Source of the DNA: a virus
Lineage: Duplodnaviria > Heunggongvirae > Uroviricota > Caudoviricetes
IMG/VR virus record: IMGVR_UViG_2565956722_000005
Location: 1 to 46,116 of that record
Strand: one strand, 5' to 3'
DNA: 46,116 nt
The position numbers were made by a program, and so were the translations under genes. The notes under the pieces are model-generated. The model saw only the letters and a list, made by a program, of their open reading frames with translations, did no database searches and was not told where the DNA came from. Of this stretch, positions 33,059-36,995 are shown in pieces. The first letter of the stretch is position 1; the number at the start of each line of letters is the position of its first letter.

Positions 33059-33856
33059 TTACTCTCTGGAAGCTTTTCTTATCTCTCTTGGTGTTATATT
33101 AAAACGATTATGAAATCTTTCAGTAAAACGAGAAGGACACTTATAACCATTTTCTCTGGCAATCTCGCTTATAGGTTTTACCGTCGTTTGTATAGCAGAC
33201 AACGCATTATTTAACCTCACATCGTCCAGTATACTTTGGAAACTTACCCCCTCGCTTGCTAGACGGCGATGTAATGTAGAAACAGAAATGTAGAGATATC
33301 GAGCAACCTTGTTTGCTGTCCATTTTGTGCCGGGTTCGGATAGCAGCAGGTTATAACAACGACTTATCAATGATTGTTTACTATATGATAAAAGTAAATG
33401 ATTAACATGATTCACTCCTAACGAAAGTAGAACGCCCATTGCTAAGTGCTCCTGAATTTTAGTTGAGAAGCCTCGGGAAACAGATGTTTTTAGTTGCTCC
33501 CAACAATATATTAACTCAGGATTCTGAGGTAAAAAGAAACTTGTTTTGTTACGTATTTGATCAGTTACCGTATAAAGTTTTTGGAAACTCTCAATTAAAT
33601 CAATGGGTAAGTAAAGCATTTCTGCAAGATAAAGCCCTGCTTCAGGATAATTCTCAATATAAAATTCATAACCACAAGGAAATAATATTATTTGATTATT
33701 ATCAACAGTTAAAGTATGCGTCTCCCAATTGATAACTTTCTTTCCCTGACGGATACGACACAAAGCTGGCATAAGAGGCTTAACCCTATGAATCTCATGA
33801 TGTTTATGCATCCGTATTTCTTCGATCTTTAAGTTAGTCTTACCTCTTGCCAGCAT
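33059..33856 (-). CDS. ybcM: AraC-family transcriptional regulator (YbcM-like)
   Basis: 265 aa; C-terminal AraC HTH (...[28 protein letters not shown]); DLP12 ybcM-like position. Confidence 0.8.
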
Positions 33857-33865
33857 ACTCTCACC

Positions 33866-34417
33866 CTACTTTATCTCATAAACTGGTGTTATCTCAGCGG
33901 TTGCGATTTTATTAGCATTAAGCATATAACCAACTAACGCTCCGCTGGAGTTAGAATCTACAGGAATCTTTTCAGTTTTTAGAGCCCATACTTTAAACTG
34001 GTAATGATGTGGTTTATCTCCTTTAGGAGGACACGCGCCACCAAACCCAGCATAGCCAAAATCATTTCGGCCTTGAACAGCACCAGTCGGCAGTTTTGTT
34101 CCATCACGTCTCCCTGCATCAACGGGCAAATATGTTATTGTTGCTGGAATATTAACAACAGTCCAATGCCACCAACCACTGCCTGTAGGTGCATCTGGAT
34201 CATATACAGTTACGGCAAAGCTTTTGGTACCTTCAGGAACACCAGACCAGGTTAATGAGGGCGATGTATTACCACCTTCACACCCAAATCCAGAAAAGAC
34301 ATGAGACGTTGTAAGTTGCTCTCCTGTTTTTATTTCATTACTAGTGACCTGAAATGCTGCAGCCTGCGCAGAAAATGTTATGAATGCCAATACAGTTGAA
34401 ACGATAAGTGTTTTCAT
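33866..34417 (-). CDS. ybcL: secreted PEBP/RKIP-family protein (YbcL-like)
   Basis: Signal peptide then PEBP-like motifs (YDPDAP, GWWHW, HHYQF); DLP12 YbcL-like. Confidence 0.85.
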   Translation of the reverse strand: MKTLIVSTVLAFITFSAQAAAFQVTSNEIKTGEQLTTSHVFSGFGCEGGNTSPSLTWSGVPEGTKSFAVTVYDPDAPTGSGWWHWTVVNIPATITYLPVDAGRRDGTKLPTGAVQGRNDFGYAGFGGACPPKGDKPHHYQFKVWALKTEKIPVDSNSSGALVGYMLNANKIATAEITPVYEIK

Positions 34418-34633
34418 AAAAACCTCTTTGTTATGACCTATCGTTATTTTATTTGATATTCCTTTATCTCATTATGCATAAAGGCGCAATTTTTATGCAA
34501 AAGCAATCACAATTGTACCCCCAACCCAATTATTTGCCACAATATACACAAAGCACATTGATACTATCTAAAAACTCTGCTTTATTATTAGTAATACCTA
34601 CGAAAGTCGGTGTTATTTTTTAACCTATCATTC

Positions 34634-34683
34634 AAAATACGTGACATACACCATTTTGCTCATAATAATTTGTCACGTATTTT
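34634..34683. repeat. 13-bp perfect inverted repeat AAAATACGTGACA / TGTCACGTATTTT with 24-bp spacer
   Basis: Read directly at 34634-34646 and 34671-34683 in the AT-rich ybcK-ybcL intergenic region. Confidence 0.85.
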
Positions 34684-34881
34684 CAGTATTTGAATCTGCG
34701 ACCAAGAGTTCTCACCTGACAAATGATTAAGATTGTATAGCTCATTTACTACCCCAATACAGCCGTACAAAACTCGCTTGTGGGAGCAAACAAAGTAATT
34801 ACCCATTAAGTTTCGTCAAAGATAATTAATTCTGTCTTGCACTTTATCACCATAGCATAACTTAAAATCCGAGATCATTAT

Positions 34882-36408
34882 TTAGAAATAAATCTCACCA
34901 TCAACCATATATTTGAGAGCACTTATCGCCTGCTGGGCGGATATTACTTTCATTAAAGGATAGTGTTTAAAAACAATGCCATTCATAAAATAAATATCAC
35001 AGGTTTTATTATCCGTATTAATTATGATTTTTTCGAATGTTTTATAGGCAAGTGTACGGCATAACTCTCGTCCATTTTTACTGGTTAAGTCAATAGCATA
35101 AAAATCACTGAATGAATTTACACCTTTACTCTTCAAAGTTTTCAATGATACCGAAGCCCTTCGTAATTCCTTATCTAATAGTCTTATTTTCTCTGCTATA
35201 GCGGTAACTTCAGGCGCGACAGACAATGCAACGATTAAATTATTAATTTTCATCTGAAGCTCAATAATTTTTAACTCTAAAGTTTCATTAGCATCTTTCT
35301 TGTTTTCAACTGGTTGAATTTTGCTACAATTAAAAAGCAATTCATTAATGATATTATAATCAACCAAATCTCTTTTTATTGATGGCCTGTCACATCGATG
35401 TAATCTTCTCATCGGACAAACATAATAGCCATGCAAACTTCCAGATACCGCATGAACAATCATGGTATTACCACAAGCCTCACACTTCATAACTGTTCGA
35501 AGTAGATTTATTAGCATAGGATTCTTGCTACTATTGCTAATACCAAAAGGTGCCAACCGAATTTCCTGTACAGCGTAAAACAAATCATCTGATATGACTC
35601 TGGGATAATAGCCAGCGATTTCACTTATCCCTTTCCCTCTTGCACGATATGAAGGTACGCATATACCTATCAGAGCTTTATTCGCTAATAATTTTTCAAT
35701 TACAGAAGGTCCCCATGCACTTTCTTTTCCTGAGAAATTCTTTACAGCATGATCATTTAAATACTTGGCTATTGCATTCAATGAGCGCCTTTCCATCCTG
35801 AGTTTAAAAATTAGCTCAATAGTTTTCACCCTGTCGGGGTCTGGAACAAAAGCCGTTCTTTTGTCATCTAAGGAGAGCCATCTCGGACAAGACGCCGTCA
35901 TAATCGTACCTGATTCCAGTGCATCCTGCCGTTTTTTCTTCCATGATAATTTAACCCGACTTGACTTTATCTCGCTTTCTTCATTTGCCCTTTGTGCTAT
36001 AAGTATGGCTTTTATTAATGAATATGGCTCATTCAAAGAGTCAATATTATAGACTGTATTGTCGCAAAGAGTTATAACATCAATACCGTGATTCAAAATC
36101 AATTTCAGACGTTCAATCGCTTCACCGACTTTTTCTCTTGAAAGTCTGTCCAGACTTTCAACTAACAATGTAGTTCCTGGCAATATATAACCATGCTCTA
36201 TAGCATCTAAAAATTCCGAAAAAGCTCCTGATTGTGCATGCTTTCCTTTGAATGCACTTAATCCTAAATCTTCATATGTTATGGTATCAAGATAATAATC
36301 ACTATTTACCTTTAACCATTCAGCAATAAGTCTTCTCTGTCGGTTTAATGAGTCACCAGACATCTGACCTGGTGATGAAAATCGCATATATGCTATGGCT
36401 TTTTTCAT
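34882..36408 (-). CDS. ybcK: large serine recombinase (YbcK-like)
   Basis: 508 aa; N-terminal resolvase catalytic motif (AIAYMRFSSPGQ), recombinase domain and Cys-rich zinc-ribbon-like segment; AT-rich. Confidence 0.85.
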   Translation of the reverse strand: MKKAIAYMRFSSPGQMSGDSLNRQRRLIAEWLKVNSDYYLDTITYEDLGLSAFKGKHAQSGAFSEFLDAIEHGYILPGTTLLVESLDRLSREKVGEAIERLKLILNHGIDVITLCDNTVYNIDSLNEPYSLIKAILIAQRANEESEIKSSRVKLSWKKKRQDALESGTIMTASCPRWLSLDDKRTAFVPDPDRVKTIELIFKLRMERRSLNAIAKYLNDHAVKNFSGKESAWGPSVIEKLLANKALIGICVPSYRARGKGISEIAGYYPRVISDDLFYAVQEIRLAPFGISNSSKNPMLINLLRTVMKCEACGNTMIVHAVSGSLHGYYVCPMRRLHRCDRPSIKRDLVDYNIINELLFNCSKIQPVENKKDANETLELKIIELQMKINNLIVALSVAPEVTAIAEKIRLLDKELRRASVSLKTLKSKGVNSFSDFYAIDLTSKNGRELCRTLAYKTFEKIIINTDNKTCDIYFMNGIVFKHYPLMKVISAQQAISALKYMVDGEIYF

Positions 36409-36590
36409 GGTGACACCTGCTAACGTATGCTTTTATAAACCTTAGTGGTGGGATATAATTTTTGTTTAATTTTTATTTAAAAAGACAATTAAGGTCACAT
36501 TATCTTGAATATACAACAATAATCGTATTGCAATTTTCTTACGCCATAATCTTGAAAGCACAAAAGAATACATAAAAAATAAAGACATTA

Positions 36591-36632
36591 ACAAAAAGCA
36601 TAAAACGAGGCTCATATAAATATAAGAGCCTC
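36591..36632 (-). terminator. intrinsic terminator downstream of emrE
   Basis: Stem GAGGCTC/GAGCCTC (36607-36613 / 36626-36632) with 12-nt AT loop, followed on the minus strand by GTTTTATGCTTTTTGT. Confidence 0.6.
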
Positions 36633-36662
36633 CATATTTTAGTCGTTTAGAAACAAATTATT

Positions 36663-36995
36663 TTAATGTGGTGTGCTTCGTGACAATAAATTAATAACCA
36701 ACACACCGGCACAAATCAACATCATGCCTATAATAGCTGGCAGGTCCAGCCGTTGGTCGAAAAGTCCCCATGACAGTAAGCTAATCAGGACAATACCGAC
36801 TCCTGACCAGATAGCATAAGCAATCCCTGTAGGAATATAAGCCAGCGTCTGAGCTAATAACCAGAATGATGCACAATAACAAATAATTGTACCAACAGAT
36901 GGCCATAACCGTGTAAAACCTTCTGAAAACTTCATTAAGGTTGTACCAATGACCTCTGCAAGTATTGCACCACCAAGATAAATATAAGGGTTCAT
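36663..36995 (-). CDS. emrE: small multidrug resistance (SMR) efflux transporter EmrE
   Basis: 110 aa from MNPYIYLGGAILAEVIGTTLMKFSEGF (ATG 36995), close to E. coli EmrE; track ORF has an upstream extension. Confidence 0.9.
   Translation of the reverse strand: MNPYIYLGGAILAEVIGTTLMKFSEGFTRLWPSVGTIICYCASFWLLAQTLAYIPTGIAYAIWSGVGIVLISLLSWGLFDQRLDLPAIIGMMLICAGVLVINLLSRSTPH

Follow-up and report, generated by a model that had tools for sequence, protein, structure and literature searches.

A DLP12-type gene cluster in a complete prophage

The gene order emrE-ybcK-ybcL-ybcM is familiar from DLP12, the cryptic prophage of Escherichia coli K-12 (b0543 to b0546), and we describe here its counterpart in a virus record of 46,116 nucleotides (nt) (IMGVR_UViG_2565956722_000005, positions 1 to 46,116), the whole of which is called the window. 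The window carries the four genes in the same order and orientation as DLP12 and is 99.5 to 100% identical to it over 5.4 kb; because the cluster is textbook annotation in K-12, the locus is already known. DLP12 and its intact relatives PhiR70_1, PhiR68_2, and PhiR34_1 also have in common with the window a 268-nt junction piece and the 13-nt inverted repeat that lies in it. The K-12 copy differs in being largely deleted, whereas the window is a complete lambda-like prophage, encoded mainly on the minus strand and retaining O, P, cI, Red-like recombination genes, tail genes, and an integrase gene. From left to right, it comprises the tail fibre, lysis, Q, nin, P, O, cII, cro/cI, RecT/exonuclease, and tyrosine integrase genes.

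The product of ybcK resembles the large serine integrases SprA, A118/LI Int, PhiC31 Int, and Bxb1 Int in its catalytic domain, long E-helix, recombinase domain, and zinc ribbon with coiled coil, but it is only 13 to 20% identical to them and has an extra conserved C-terminal beta domain (about residues 444 to 508). A second difference is that ybcK does not lie beside a prophage attachment site and that the phage has a separate tyrosine integrase. We know of no attachment (att) sites, directionality factor, or recombination product of YbcK. With the small serine recombinases Pin, Gin, and Cin it shares a serine-recombinase catalytic domain encoded within a prophage; unlike them, it has a large integrase-type C-terminal DNA-binding region, is not flanked by inverted crossover sites, and is found in a single orientation. 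The locus as a whole is reminiscent of the morons of the lambda nin/b region and of the P2/P4 defence hotspots (PMC9122126), in which fixed flanks enclose interchangeable foreign cargo with its own promoter or terminator, and the same slot in relatives holds PD-lambda-1 or SIR2-type proteins. The window departs from these systems in that none of its four proteins (EmrE, YbcK, YbcL, and YbcM) matches a PADLOC model of anti-phage defence and in that one of the cargo genes encodes a recombinase.

We assign a probability of roughly 0.7 to the reading in which the locus, already known from DLP12/phage-82-type lambdoid prophages, is a composite moron cluster that includes a captured serine-integrase gene, the product of which would act in trans outside the island. 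The slot, its genes, and its neighbours are as follows.

33028 to 37098, minus strand: hypervariable cargo slot of the lambdoid early-right operon, 4.07 kb, delimited by blastn against phages with other cargo
36663 to 36995, minus strand: emrE, small multidrug resistance efflux pump (Pfam Multi_Drug_Res, 4e-35; NCBIfam EmrE, 237 bits, residues 1 to 110 of 110)
36466 to 36615, minus strand: ylcJ, very hydrophobic small open reading frame (ORF) of 49 amino acids, from its translation and from RefSeq ylcJ in most genomes
34882 to 36408, minus strand: ybcK, large serine recombinase (serine integrase) of 508 amino acids (Pfam Resolvase, Recombinase, and Zn_ribbon_recom)
33866 to 34417, minus strand: ybcL, secreted PEBP/Raf-kinase-inhibitor-like protein (Pfam PBP, 7e-42; NCBIfam PRK09818, 400 bits, full length)
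33059 to 33856, minus strand: ybcM, AraC-family regulator (Pfam HTH_18/HTH_AraC)
37063 to 37365, minus strand: ren, coming after P and O, from its ORF and the Ren annotation in homologous phages
32389 to 32844, minus strand: ybcN/NinB, the nin-side neighbour
44908 to 46116: tyrosine integrase

The names emrE, ylcJ, ybcK, ybcL, ybcM, and ybcN are those given by RefSeq at matching loci.

A hypervariable slot with patchwork contents

In blastn comparisons, homology to phages carrying other cargo (PhiR30_1, L003; PhiR26_1, L004) ended at 33027/33028 and restarted at 37099. From the breaks at 33027/33028 and 37098/37099, the slot was therefore placed at 33028 to 37098, including the last 12 codons of ren; alignment of ren 3' ends showed that this end of the gene has been replaced, the codons at 37063 to 37098 falling in the variable part. 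The slot is thus bounded by ren on one side and by a conserved promoter and hairpin upstream of ylcH/ybcN on the other, and identical edges enclose unrelated cargo in other phages, namely, PD-lambda-1 with rha and other genes in PhiR26_1 and an acyltransferase gene with a lipoprotein gene in PhiR30_1. Its contents have the marks of moron or accessory cargo: a distinct composition, variability among relatives (which have other cargo or none there), a location between conserved phage genes, and a terminator of their own after emrE. The original prediction, made from the letters of the window and their open reading frames, had described the four genes as cargo interrupting the replication-to-nin region, and all four lie there, on the minus strand, at the coordinates listed above. 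Its description of the island as AT rich was likewise confirmed by measurement, the G+C content dropping to 0.31 to 0.45 in the slot region compared with 0.50 to 0.56 in the flanks (ren/P and the nin genes). The claim that the island has its own terminators stood in part: a clear hairpin with a T run follows emrE, but a consensus terminator scan did no better than on shuffled sequence, the number of sites not being above that in the latter.

36608 to 36633, minus strand: inverted repeat GAGGCTCTTATA-tt-TATATGAGCCTC (12-nt arms, one mismatch) and, after it, a T-rich run; the probable emrE terminator

The nin-side edge of the slot is itself a conserved element.

32966 to 33026, minus strand: nin-side boundary module, from a promoter scan and the alignment of eight cargo variants

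This module consists of a palindrome, TTGATT-N6-AATCAA (33009 to 33026), the same bases of which serve as a -35 element, a -10 element (CATAAT, 32998 to 33003), and a GC-rich hairpin (32966 to 32994). It was present in all eight of the cargo variants, with a different 6-nt spacer in the palindrome of each. A second copy lies within the slot of PhiR26_1 (L004, about 5500 to 5663). The phage 82 record (X92588) marks the palindrome as a possible regulator-binding site and -35 element, and the module may act both as a regulator site and as a recombination "linker" for the stacking of cassettes.

Arrangements of the slot were compared across 5,426 E. coli genomes and 80 IMG/VR viral contigs; the scan of viral contigs returned only E. 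coli copies of ybcK and was used as a census, not as a source of distant contexts. The 5.4-kb query region is 99.5 to 100% identical in 669 of the E. coli genomes, K-12 and B included, and is matched equally well by PhiR70_1, PhiR68_2, and PhiR34_1, which form plaques and come from the ECOR collection. All 80 contigs have the genes P-ren-emrE-ylcJ-ybcK in one invariant, colinear order. Between ybcK and ybcN, at least six different arrangements occurred across the same contigs, and variants were found in E. coli genomes too. Perceval-type phages and many E. coli prophages have positions 34841 to 38200 (ren-emrE-ylcJ-ybcK) in common with the window but continue differently after ybcK: with a gene for an esterase (alpha/beta hydrolase) instead of ybcL-ybcM in the Perceval type, and elsewhere with the 3' half of rha and a hypothetical gene or, as in the O157-type prophage at icd, with almost nothing.

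The ybcL-ybcM block can also be found without ybcK. In 2,627 of the 5,426 E. coli genomes, emrE is joined straight to ybcL-ybcM in a copy that adjoins fliE, beside a porin gene, and that is 80 to 90% identical to the window. The chromosome of uropathogenic E. coli shares positions 32842 to 34572 and 36656 to 37072 with the window and lacks 34573 to 36655; relative to the fliE-locus copy, the ybcK segment is these 2,083 nt. Because the fliE-locus copy keeps 186 nt of phage sequence upstream of ybcN together with the end of ren, it represents an old and degraded DLP12-like prophage, and this remnant is fixed in many E. coli lineages. The gene order at the ybcK-less locus is porin-ybcM-ybcL-emrE, between yedK and fliE (L001, 6634 to 10154, E. 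coli clone D i2; L103), and strain HH45 carries a 94% recombinant allele of it. The emrE-ybcK and ybcL-ybcM blocks thus occur independently and do not behave as one unit.

The joints between the pieces were informative in their own right.

34807 to 34881, minus strand: 3' flank of ybcK, about 75 nt, from alignment of six arrangements after the ybcK stop codon

Cargo is joined at about +66 (O157 type), at +75 (window type), or at +124/125 (truncated-rha types) past the ybcK stop codon. Within the flank, homology is recognisable but strongly diverged between alleles, and differing cargo is attached beyond it; the ybcK genes of the window and Perceval, by comparison, are approximately 96.5% identical. 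In the other ybcK phages with rha, that gene is cut at about codon 100, 124 to 125 nt past the ybcK stop codon. The gene after ybcK in these phages is the C-terminal half of rha, annotated as a P22AR C-terminal domain (L101, 4575 to 4898; L102, 4575 to 4898; L002, 5109 to 5262). We regard the truncated rha as a scar of the illegitimate event that introduced emrE-ybcK. In these alignments the joints look illegitimate rather than site specific and, judged by the arrangements compared, the contents of the slot are a composite and not a single island.

An intact serine integrase and its family

The identification of ybcK as the gene for a 508-residue serine recombinase proved sound. Three Pfam domains are present (Resolvase, 5.5e-19; Recombinase; and Zn_ribbon_recom), and residues R9, S11, D19, R23, E84-S85-L86-D87-R88, S90, R91, E143, and E144 are invariant in 29 homologs with identities down to 29%, as are the zinc-ribbon cysteines C309, C312, C331, and C339; the motif ESLDRLSR (E84 to R91) is kept in 29 of 29. 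A single-sequence search of solved structures with YbcK returned nothing, but the family profile matched SPbeta SprA and the A118 integrase. An AlphaFold2 model (predicted local distance difference test score, 80) has helices at 368 to 397 and 401 to 427 that form an inserted coiled coil, and Foldseek matched the full-length model, coiled coil included, to the SprA, PhiC31, and Bxb1 integrases (E values, 6e-18 to 6e-14). The protein thus has the domain composition of a large serine recombinase, with a catalytic domain and a recombinase domain followed by a four-Cys zinc ribbon with coiled coil, and in all its sequence features YbcK is a complete and enzymatically competent enzyme of this class.

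The ratio of nonsynonymous to synonymous substitution rates (dN/dS) for ybcK is approximately 0.07 (range, 0.06 to 0.2) and is 0.06 to 0.08 among E. coli alleles with dS values of up to 0.18. The ORF was intact in eight of eight alleles examined, and the segment was nearly full length in 1,400 genomes. These ratios show that the gene is under strong purifying selection. A catalytically dead ybcK was one of the two things that the original prediction had named as counting against it; the invariant catalytic Ser and Arg and zinc-binding Cys residues, together with the low dN/dS, indicate the opposite.

Full-length orthologs of YbcK with 40 to 61% identity were found in Atlantibacter, Yersinia, Erwinia, Pantoea, Ewingella, Citrobacter, and other genera, as single-gene cassettes that occupy cargo zones in unrelated prophages and mobile elements; a search of cultured-phage proteins found no members of the YbcK subfamily from outside E. 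coli. Some orthologs lie after O/P and before nin/Q (L017, L097, and L014, the last with a tyrosine integrase of its own), and others follow tail-fibre genes, with no further gene before host DNA (L006, next to ssrA; L012; L095; and L098). Further copies lie at the end of a small element (L022/L023) or inside a mobilisable element (L010). In Atlantibacter, the ortholog (L006, 11530 to 12432; 59% identical) closes a prophage that has Mu-like tail genes; the 3' end of the tmRNA gene ssrA is 540 nt away, and this position usually belongs to an integrase. Terminal copies bordering host DNA include those in Atlantibacter (DHIB01000016, beside ssrA), Erwinia rhapontici (JAGGMP010000001, close to lepA), and Ewingella (JALCNN010000002). 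The frequent terminal position suggests that the YbcK family consists of genuine integrases of various elements.

The same recombinase gene was found in unrelated surroundings, accompanied by short flanks only; the DNA identity and the common extent relative to the gene are given here for three pairs of loci.

L022 versus L036: 94% identity, -220 to +56
L014 versus L028: 83% identity, -127 to +4
L006 versus L017: 76% identity, -68 to 0

In orthologous loci, partial duplicates of an adjacent phage gene, only 75 to 82% identical (the 5' part of the DUF1367 gene in L097 and P fragments in L036), bracketed the recombinase insert; they are scars of the joining of two different phages. In L097, a lambdoid prophage from a metagenome, the YbcK ortholog lies with KGG and DinI genes between the two copies, 82% identical, of a 229-nt direct repeat of the 5' part of the DUF1367 gene (9623 to 12831), and the post-P slot of this prophage also holds a gene for a 646-residue SIR2_2 protein (5755 to 7695).

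Three published observations concern ybcK, and none of them assigns it a function. A Rho/NusG-dependent terminator in its 5' untranslated region keeps the gene silent (PMC4150792), its overexpression raises sabinene tolerance and its deletion lowers it (PMC7181518), and it was among 16 K-12 recombinases without a role in excision of the H47 island (PMC5426353).

Mobility, the inverted repeat, and competing explanations

In the original prediction, the recombinase might drive, or be left over from, a mobile element or invertible segment embedded here, and a comparison with phages lacking the island had been suggested as a way to find duplications or recombinase sites at its edges. A search for direct and inverted repeats bordering the island or ybcK gave only chance-level matches, and the island edges proved to be shared with unrelated cargo. 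A synthetic query representing a ybcK-less emrE-ybcL joint had no full-length match at 95% identity or more in the 5,426 E. coli genomes. It matched only the fliE-locus allele (80 to 95% identical), which is about 11% diverged and therefore not a recent empty site. In 1,427 genomes ybcK was single copy, and in E. coli it was always in the same place; of 675 genomes with the junction piece, 669 hold the entire 5.4-kb query region at one colinear place. Excision or inversion junctions, flanking repeats, and conserved att-like sites were found in none of the 5,426 genomes and 80 viral contigs. An invertible segment was not seen either, since all 80 contigs have one orientation only, and the sole strong inverted repeat has a spacer of 24 nt. 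Beside 17 to 18 YbcK-family genes, no conserved flanking motif, inverted repeat, or 46-nt dyad symmetry rose above the shuffled expectation, and no E. coli prophage-host junction carrying ybcK or the 34634 to 34683 repeat was found. The ybcK-bearing phages integrate by means of tyrosine integrases at different sites (44908 to 46116 in the window, PhiR70_1, and the O157 type at icd). To the extent that assembled genomes reveal such events, the island edges are not a substrate of YbcK. With independent sub-blocks, generic slot edges, no flanking repeats, and colinearity throughout, the idea of an embedded mobile or invertible element was not upheld.

The perfect inverted repeat that had been noticed in the ybcK-ybcL gap is present at 34634 to 34683.

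34573 to 34840, strand unassigned: 268-nt junction piece, present only where ybcL-ybcM follows ybcK
34634 to 34646 and 34671 to 34683: 13-nt perfect inverted repeat, AAAATACGTGACA / TGTCACGTATTTT, with a 24-nt spacer, 50 nt in total

The junction piece occurs once per genome in 675 of the 5,426 genomes and has no Rfam match. Perceval-type phages and the fliE-locus copy lack it, and searches of E. coli genomes and of plasmids gave no other occurrence. The repeat lies 199 to 248 nt past the ybcK stop codon and 217 to 266 nt upstream of the ybcL start codon, and it is the only perfect repeat in the 46-kb window with arms of at least 13 nt and a spacer of at most 40 nt. First-order Markov simulations gave a comparable repeat in 3% of runs for the window and in 0.45% for the island only; the repeat is above chance, not overwhelmingly so. 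In minus-strand RNA, its arms pair into a 13-bp stem that encloses a 24-nt loop and ends in UAUUUU; this stem dominates the centroid fold. The K-12-type, PhiR70_1, and window copies are identical, leaving too little variation for covariation. Because the repeat is absent from every other ybcK arrangement, it is not a site that ybcK needs in cis. Most likely, it acts locally between ybcK and ybcL, as an RNA hairpin or insulator (terminator) or as an operator; a role as a recombination site is improbable. No enrichment of the full 13-mer was seen in the window when mismatches were allowed. A shorter motif, CGTGACA, common to the repeat arms and the 3' end of emrE, was set aside as at most marginal (11 window matches versus 5.3 expected, with 11 reached in 3 of 100 shuffles).

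On the preferred reading of a composite moron cluster, the joints and the mosaic pattern suggest that the pieces were first joined by illegitimate recombination and that the conserved flanks and ybcK now allow phages to exchange them by homologous recombination. One piece, ren'-emrE-ylcJ-ybcK with about 75 to 125 nt of 3' flank, is fixed in all ybcK phages; the other is variable and in the window consists of the junction piece and ybcL-ybcM. The recombinase gene would be a captured member of an enterobacterial family that moves as a single-gene cassette and that elsewhere is often found at the ends of prophages or small elements. In the lysogen, two terminators, that of emrE and the Rho-dependent one in the ybcK leader, are predicted to keep YbcK silent, and it would be made once antiterminated P_R transcription reads through. 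It might then have an auxiliary role in trans, as a site-specific integrase for a putative pair of sites outside the island, with integration of the host phage left to the phage's own tyrosine integrase. Most likely, ybcK is kept functional for a role of its own on such putative sites.

Several points tell against this reading. Assembled genomes are blind to rare or transient excision and inversion, and the substrate sites of YbcK were not found in our searches, so that its activity and role are read from sequence alone. The moron label by itself leaves the strong purifying selection on a cargo recombinase unexplained. The presence or absence of ybcK between emrE and ybcL is a clean 2,083-nt difference which, taken with the three independent joints at +66 to +125, could reflect a site-specific event just 3' of ybcK. 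As for the repeat, with its putative hairpin or operator role, the 161 nt around it are not unusually stable overall (fold z-score, only -1.15), and the repeat itself is statistically unusual and, at 50 nt, of the size of a serine-integrase attP site.

Some of these points feed a broader view of the YbcK class as widespread enterobacterial serine integrases that spread as single-gene cassettes in the cargo zones of tyrosine-integrase phages, which would constitute either recombinase-only mobile elements or a second integration and cargo-capture system. We consider this doubtful. If true, it would explain both the differing cargo just downstream of ybcK and the purifying selection on the intact gene; its self-mobile version would place an attachment site within about 60 to 125 nt 3' of the gene. 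That version in its most explicit form, in which ybcK is the integrase of a minimal self-mobile cassette (about 1.8 to 2.1 kb, the gene with short flanks) that inserts site specifically in temperate phages and has its attachment site just 3', is in our judgment unlikely. It would account for the clean 2,083-nt difference, for recombinase-only segments of similar extent in unrelated contexts (-220/+56 in Pantoea and -247/+75 in E. coli), for the clustering of cargo joints, for orthologs that are often the last gene before host DNA, and for the strong selection on catalytic residues. Nevertheless, neither E. coli nor the family as a whole has cassette ends with a conserved terminal motif or significant dyad symmetry, joints on the 5' side are illegitimate (partial gene duplicates with 75 to 82% identity and truncated rha), ybcK is single copy at a constant E. 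coli location, and the only ybcK-less allele is the one about 11% diverged, with no joint at 95% identity or more. A role for the 50-nt repeat as an attP-like site, bound and crossed over by YbcK in a second chromosomal integration or in cargo capture, is improbable. Serine-integrase attP sites have a total length of about 50 nt with outer symmetric arms, a geometry that the repeat recalls, and it lies close to ybcK, is statistically unusual, and is unchanged in K-12, PhiR70_1, and the window. The attP-like role is disfavoured because ybcK is equally conserved in all the other phage types, which lack the repeat; moreover, nothing comparable to the repeat occurs at orthologous loci, E. coli prophage-host junctions with ybcK or the repeat were not found, and perfect central symmetry would mean a palindromic core without polarity.

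That the entire emrE-ybcM island is a present or recent mobile or invertible element driven by YbcK seems very improbable to us. The recombinase does lie within an AT-rich cargo block, with an unusual inverted repeat in the ybcK-ybcL gap, but the island edges are those of a generic slot for unrelated cargo and are without repeats, the sub-blocks separate, and 669 of 675 genomes with the junction piece and 80 of 80 viral contigs are colinear; on the comparative data, such an element is already contradicted. Least credible of all is ybcK as a decaying, functionless remnant of a former serine-integrase phage, for which one could cite its internal position in a prophage that uses a tyrosine integrase and the lack of any reported recombination-linked ybcK phenotype in the literature. 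We rejected decay because the catalytic features are intact by sequence; the ORF is whole in eight alleles and nearly so in 1,400 genomes, catalytic residues and zinc ligands are invariant, plaque-forming phages carry the gene, and the selection signature (dN/dS of approximately 0.07 at dS values of up to 0.18) contradicts it.

Since the cluster itself is known, its description here is of modest value, which lies in the patchwork within a defined hypervariable slot that has a conserved promoter-palindrome module as its nin-side edge, in the fixation of emrE-ybcL-ybcM without ybcK beside fliE in about half of E. coli genomes, and in a ybcK that by sequence encodes a fully equipped serine integrase under strong purifying selection. 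What remains novel is what the YbcK integrase does. Were its sites found, E. coli would offer a natural serine integrase of its own to the genome-engineering toolbox, and the reason why tyrosine-integrase phages keep a second recombinase might emerge.

Several smaller features of the cluster and of the window were recorded as well. The small ORF ylcJ is located in the ybcK leader (36409 to 36655), with its start codon within the emrE terminator hairpin, and is frameshifted in at least one genome (L102). Within the ybcK coding sequence lies a perfect inverted repeat of 11 nt with a 2-nt spacer (36138 to 36163); apart from this one and the 13-nt repeat, the window has no perfect repeats with arms of 11 nt or more and a short spacer. 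The Q-to-lysis interval of the window encodes a lipocalin (30296 to 30820), a 2-thiouracil desulfurase/DUF1722 protein (29144 to 30103), and a second AraC-type regulator (28061 to 28801); related DLP12-type phages have an nmpC/ompD porin gene in that interval. At the left end of the window, beyond the tail-fibre genes, positions 1 to 1743 hold an ORF of at least 580 codons with a KAP-family P-loop NTPase domain; this may be additional cargo or else a host or defence gene that adjoins the prophage.

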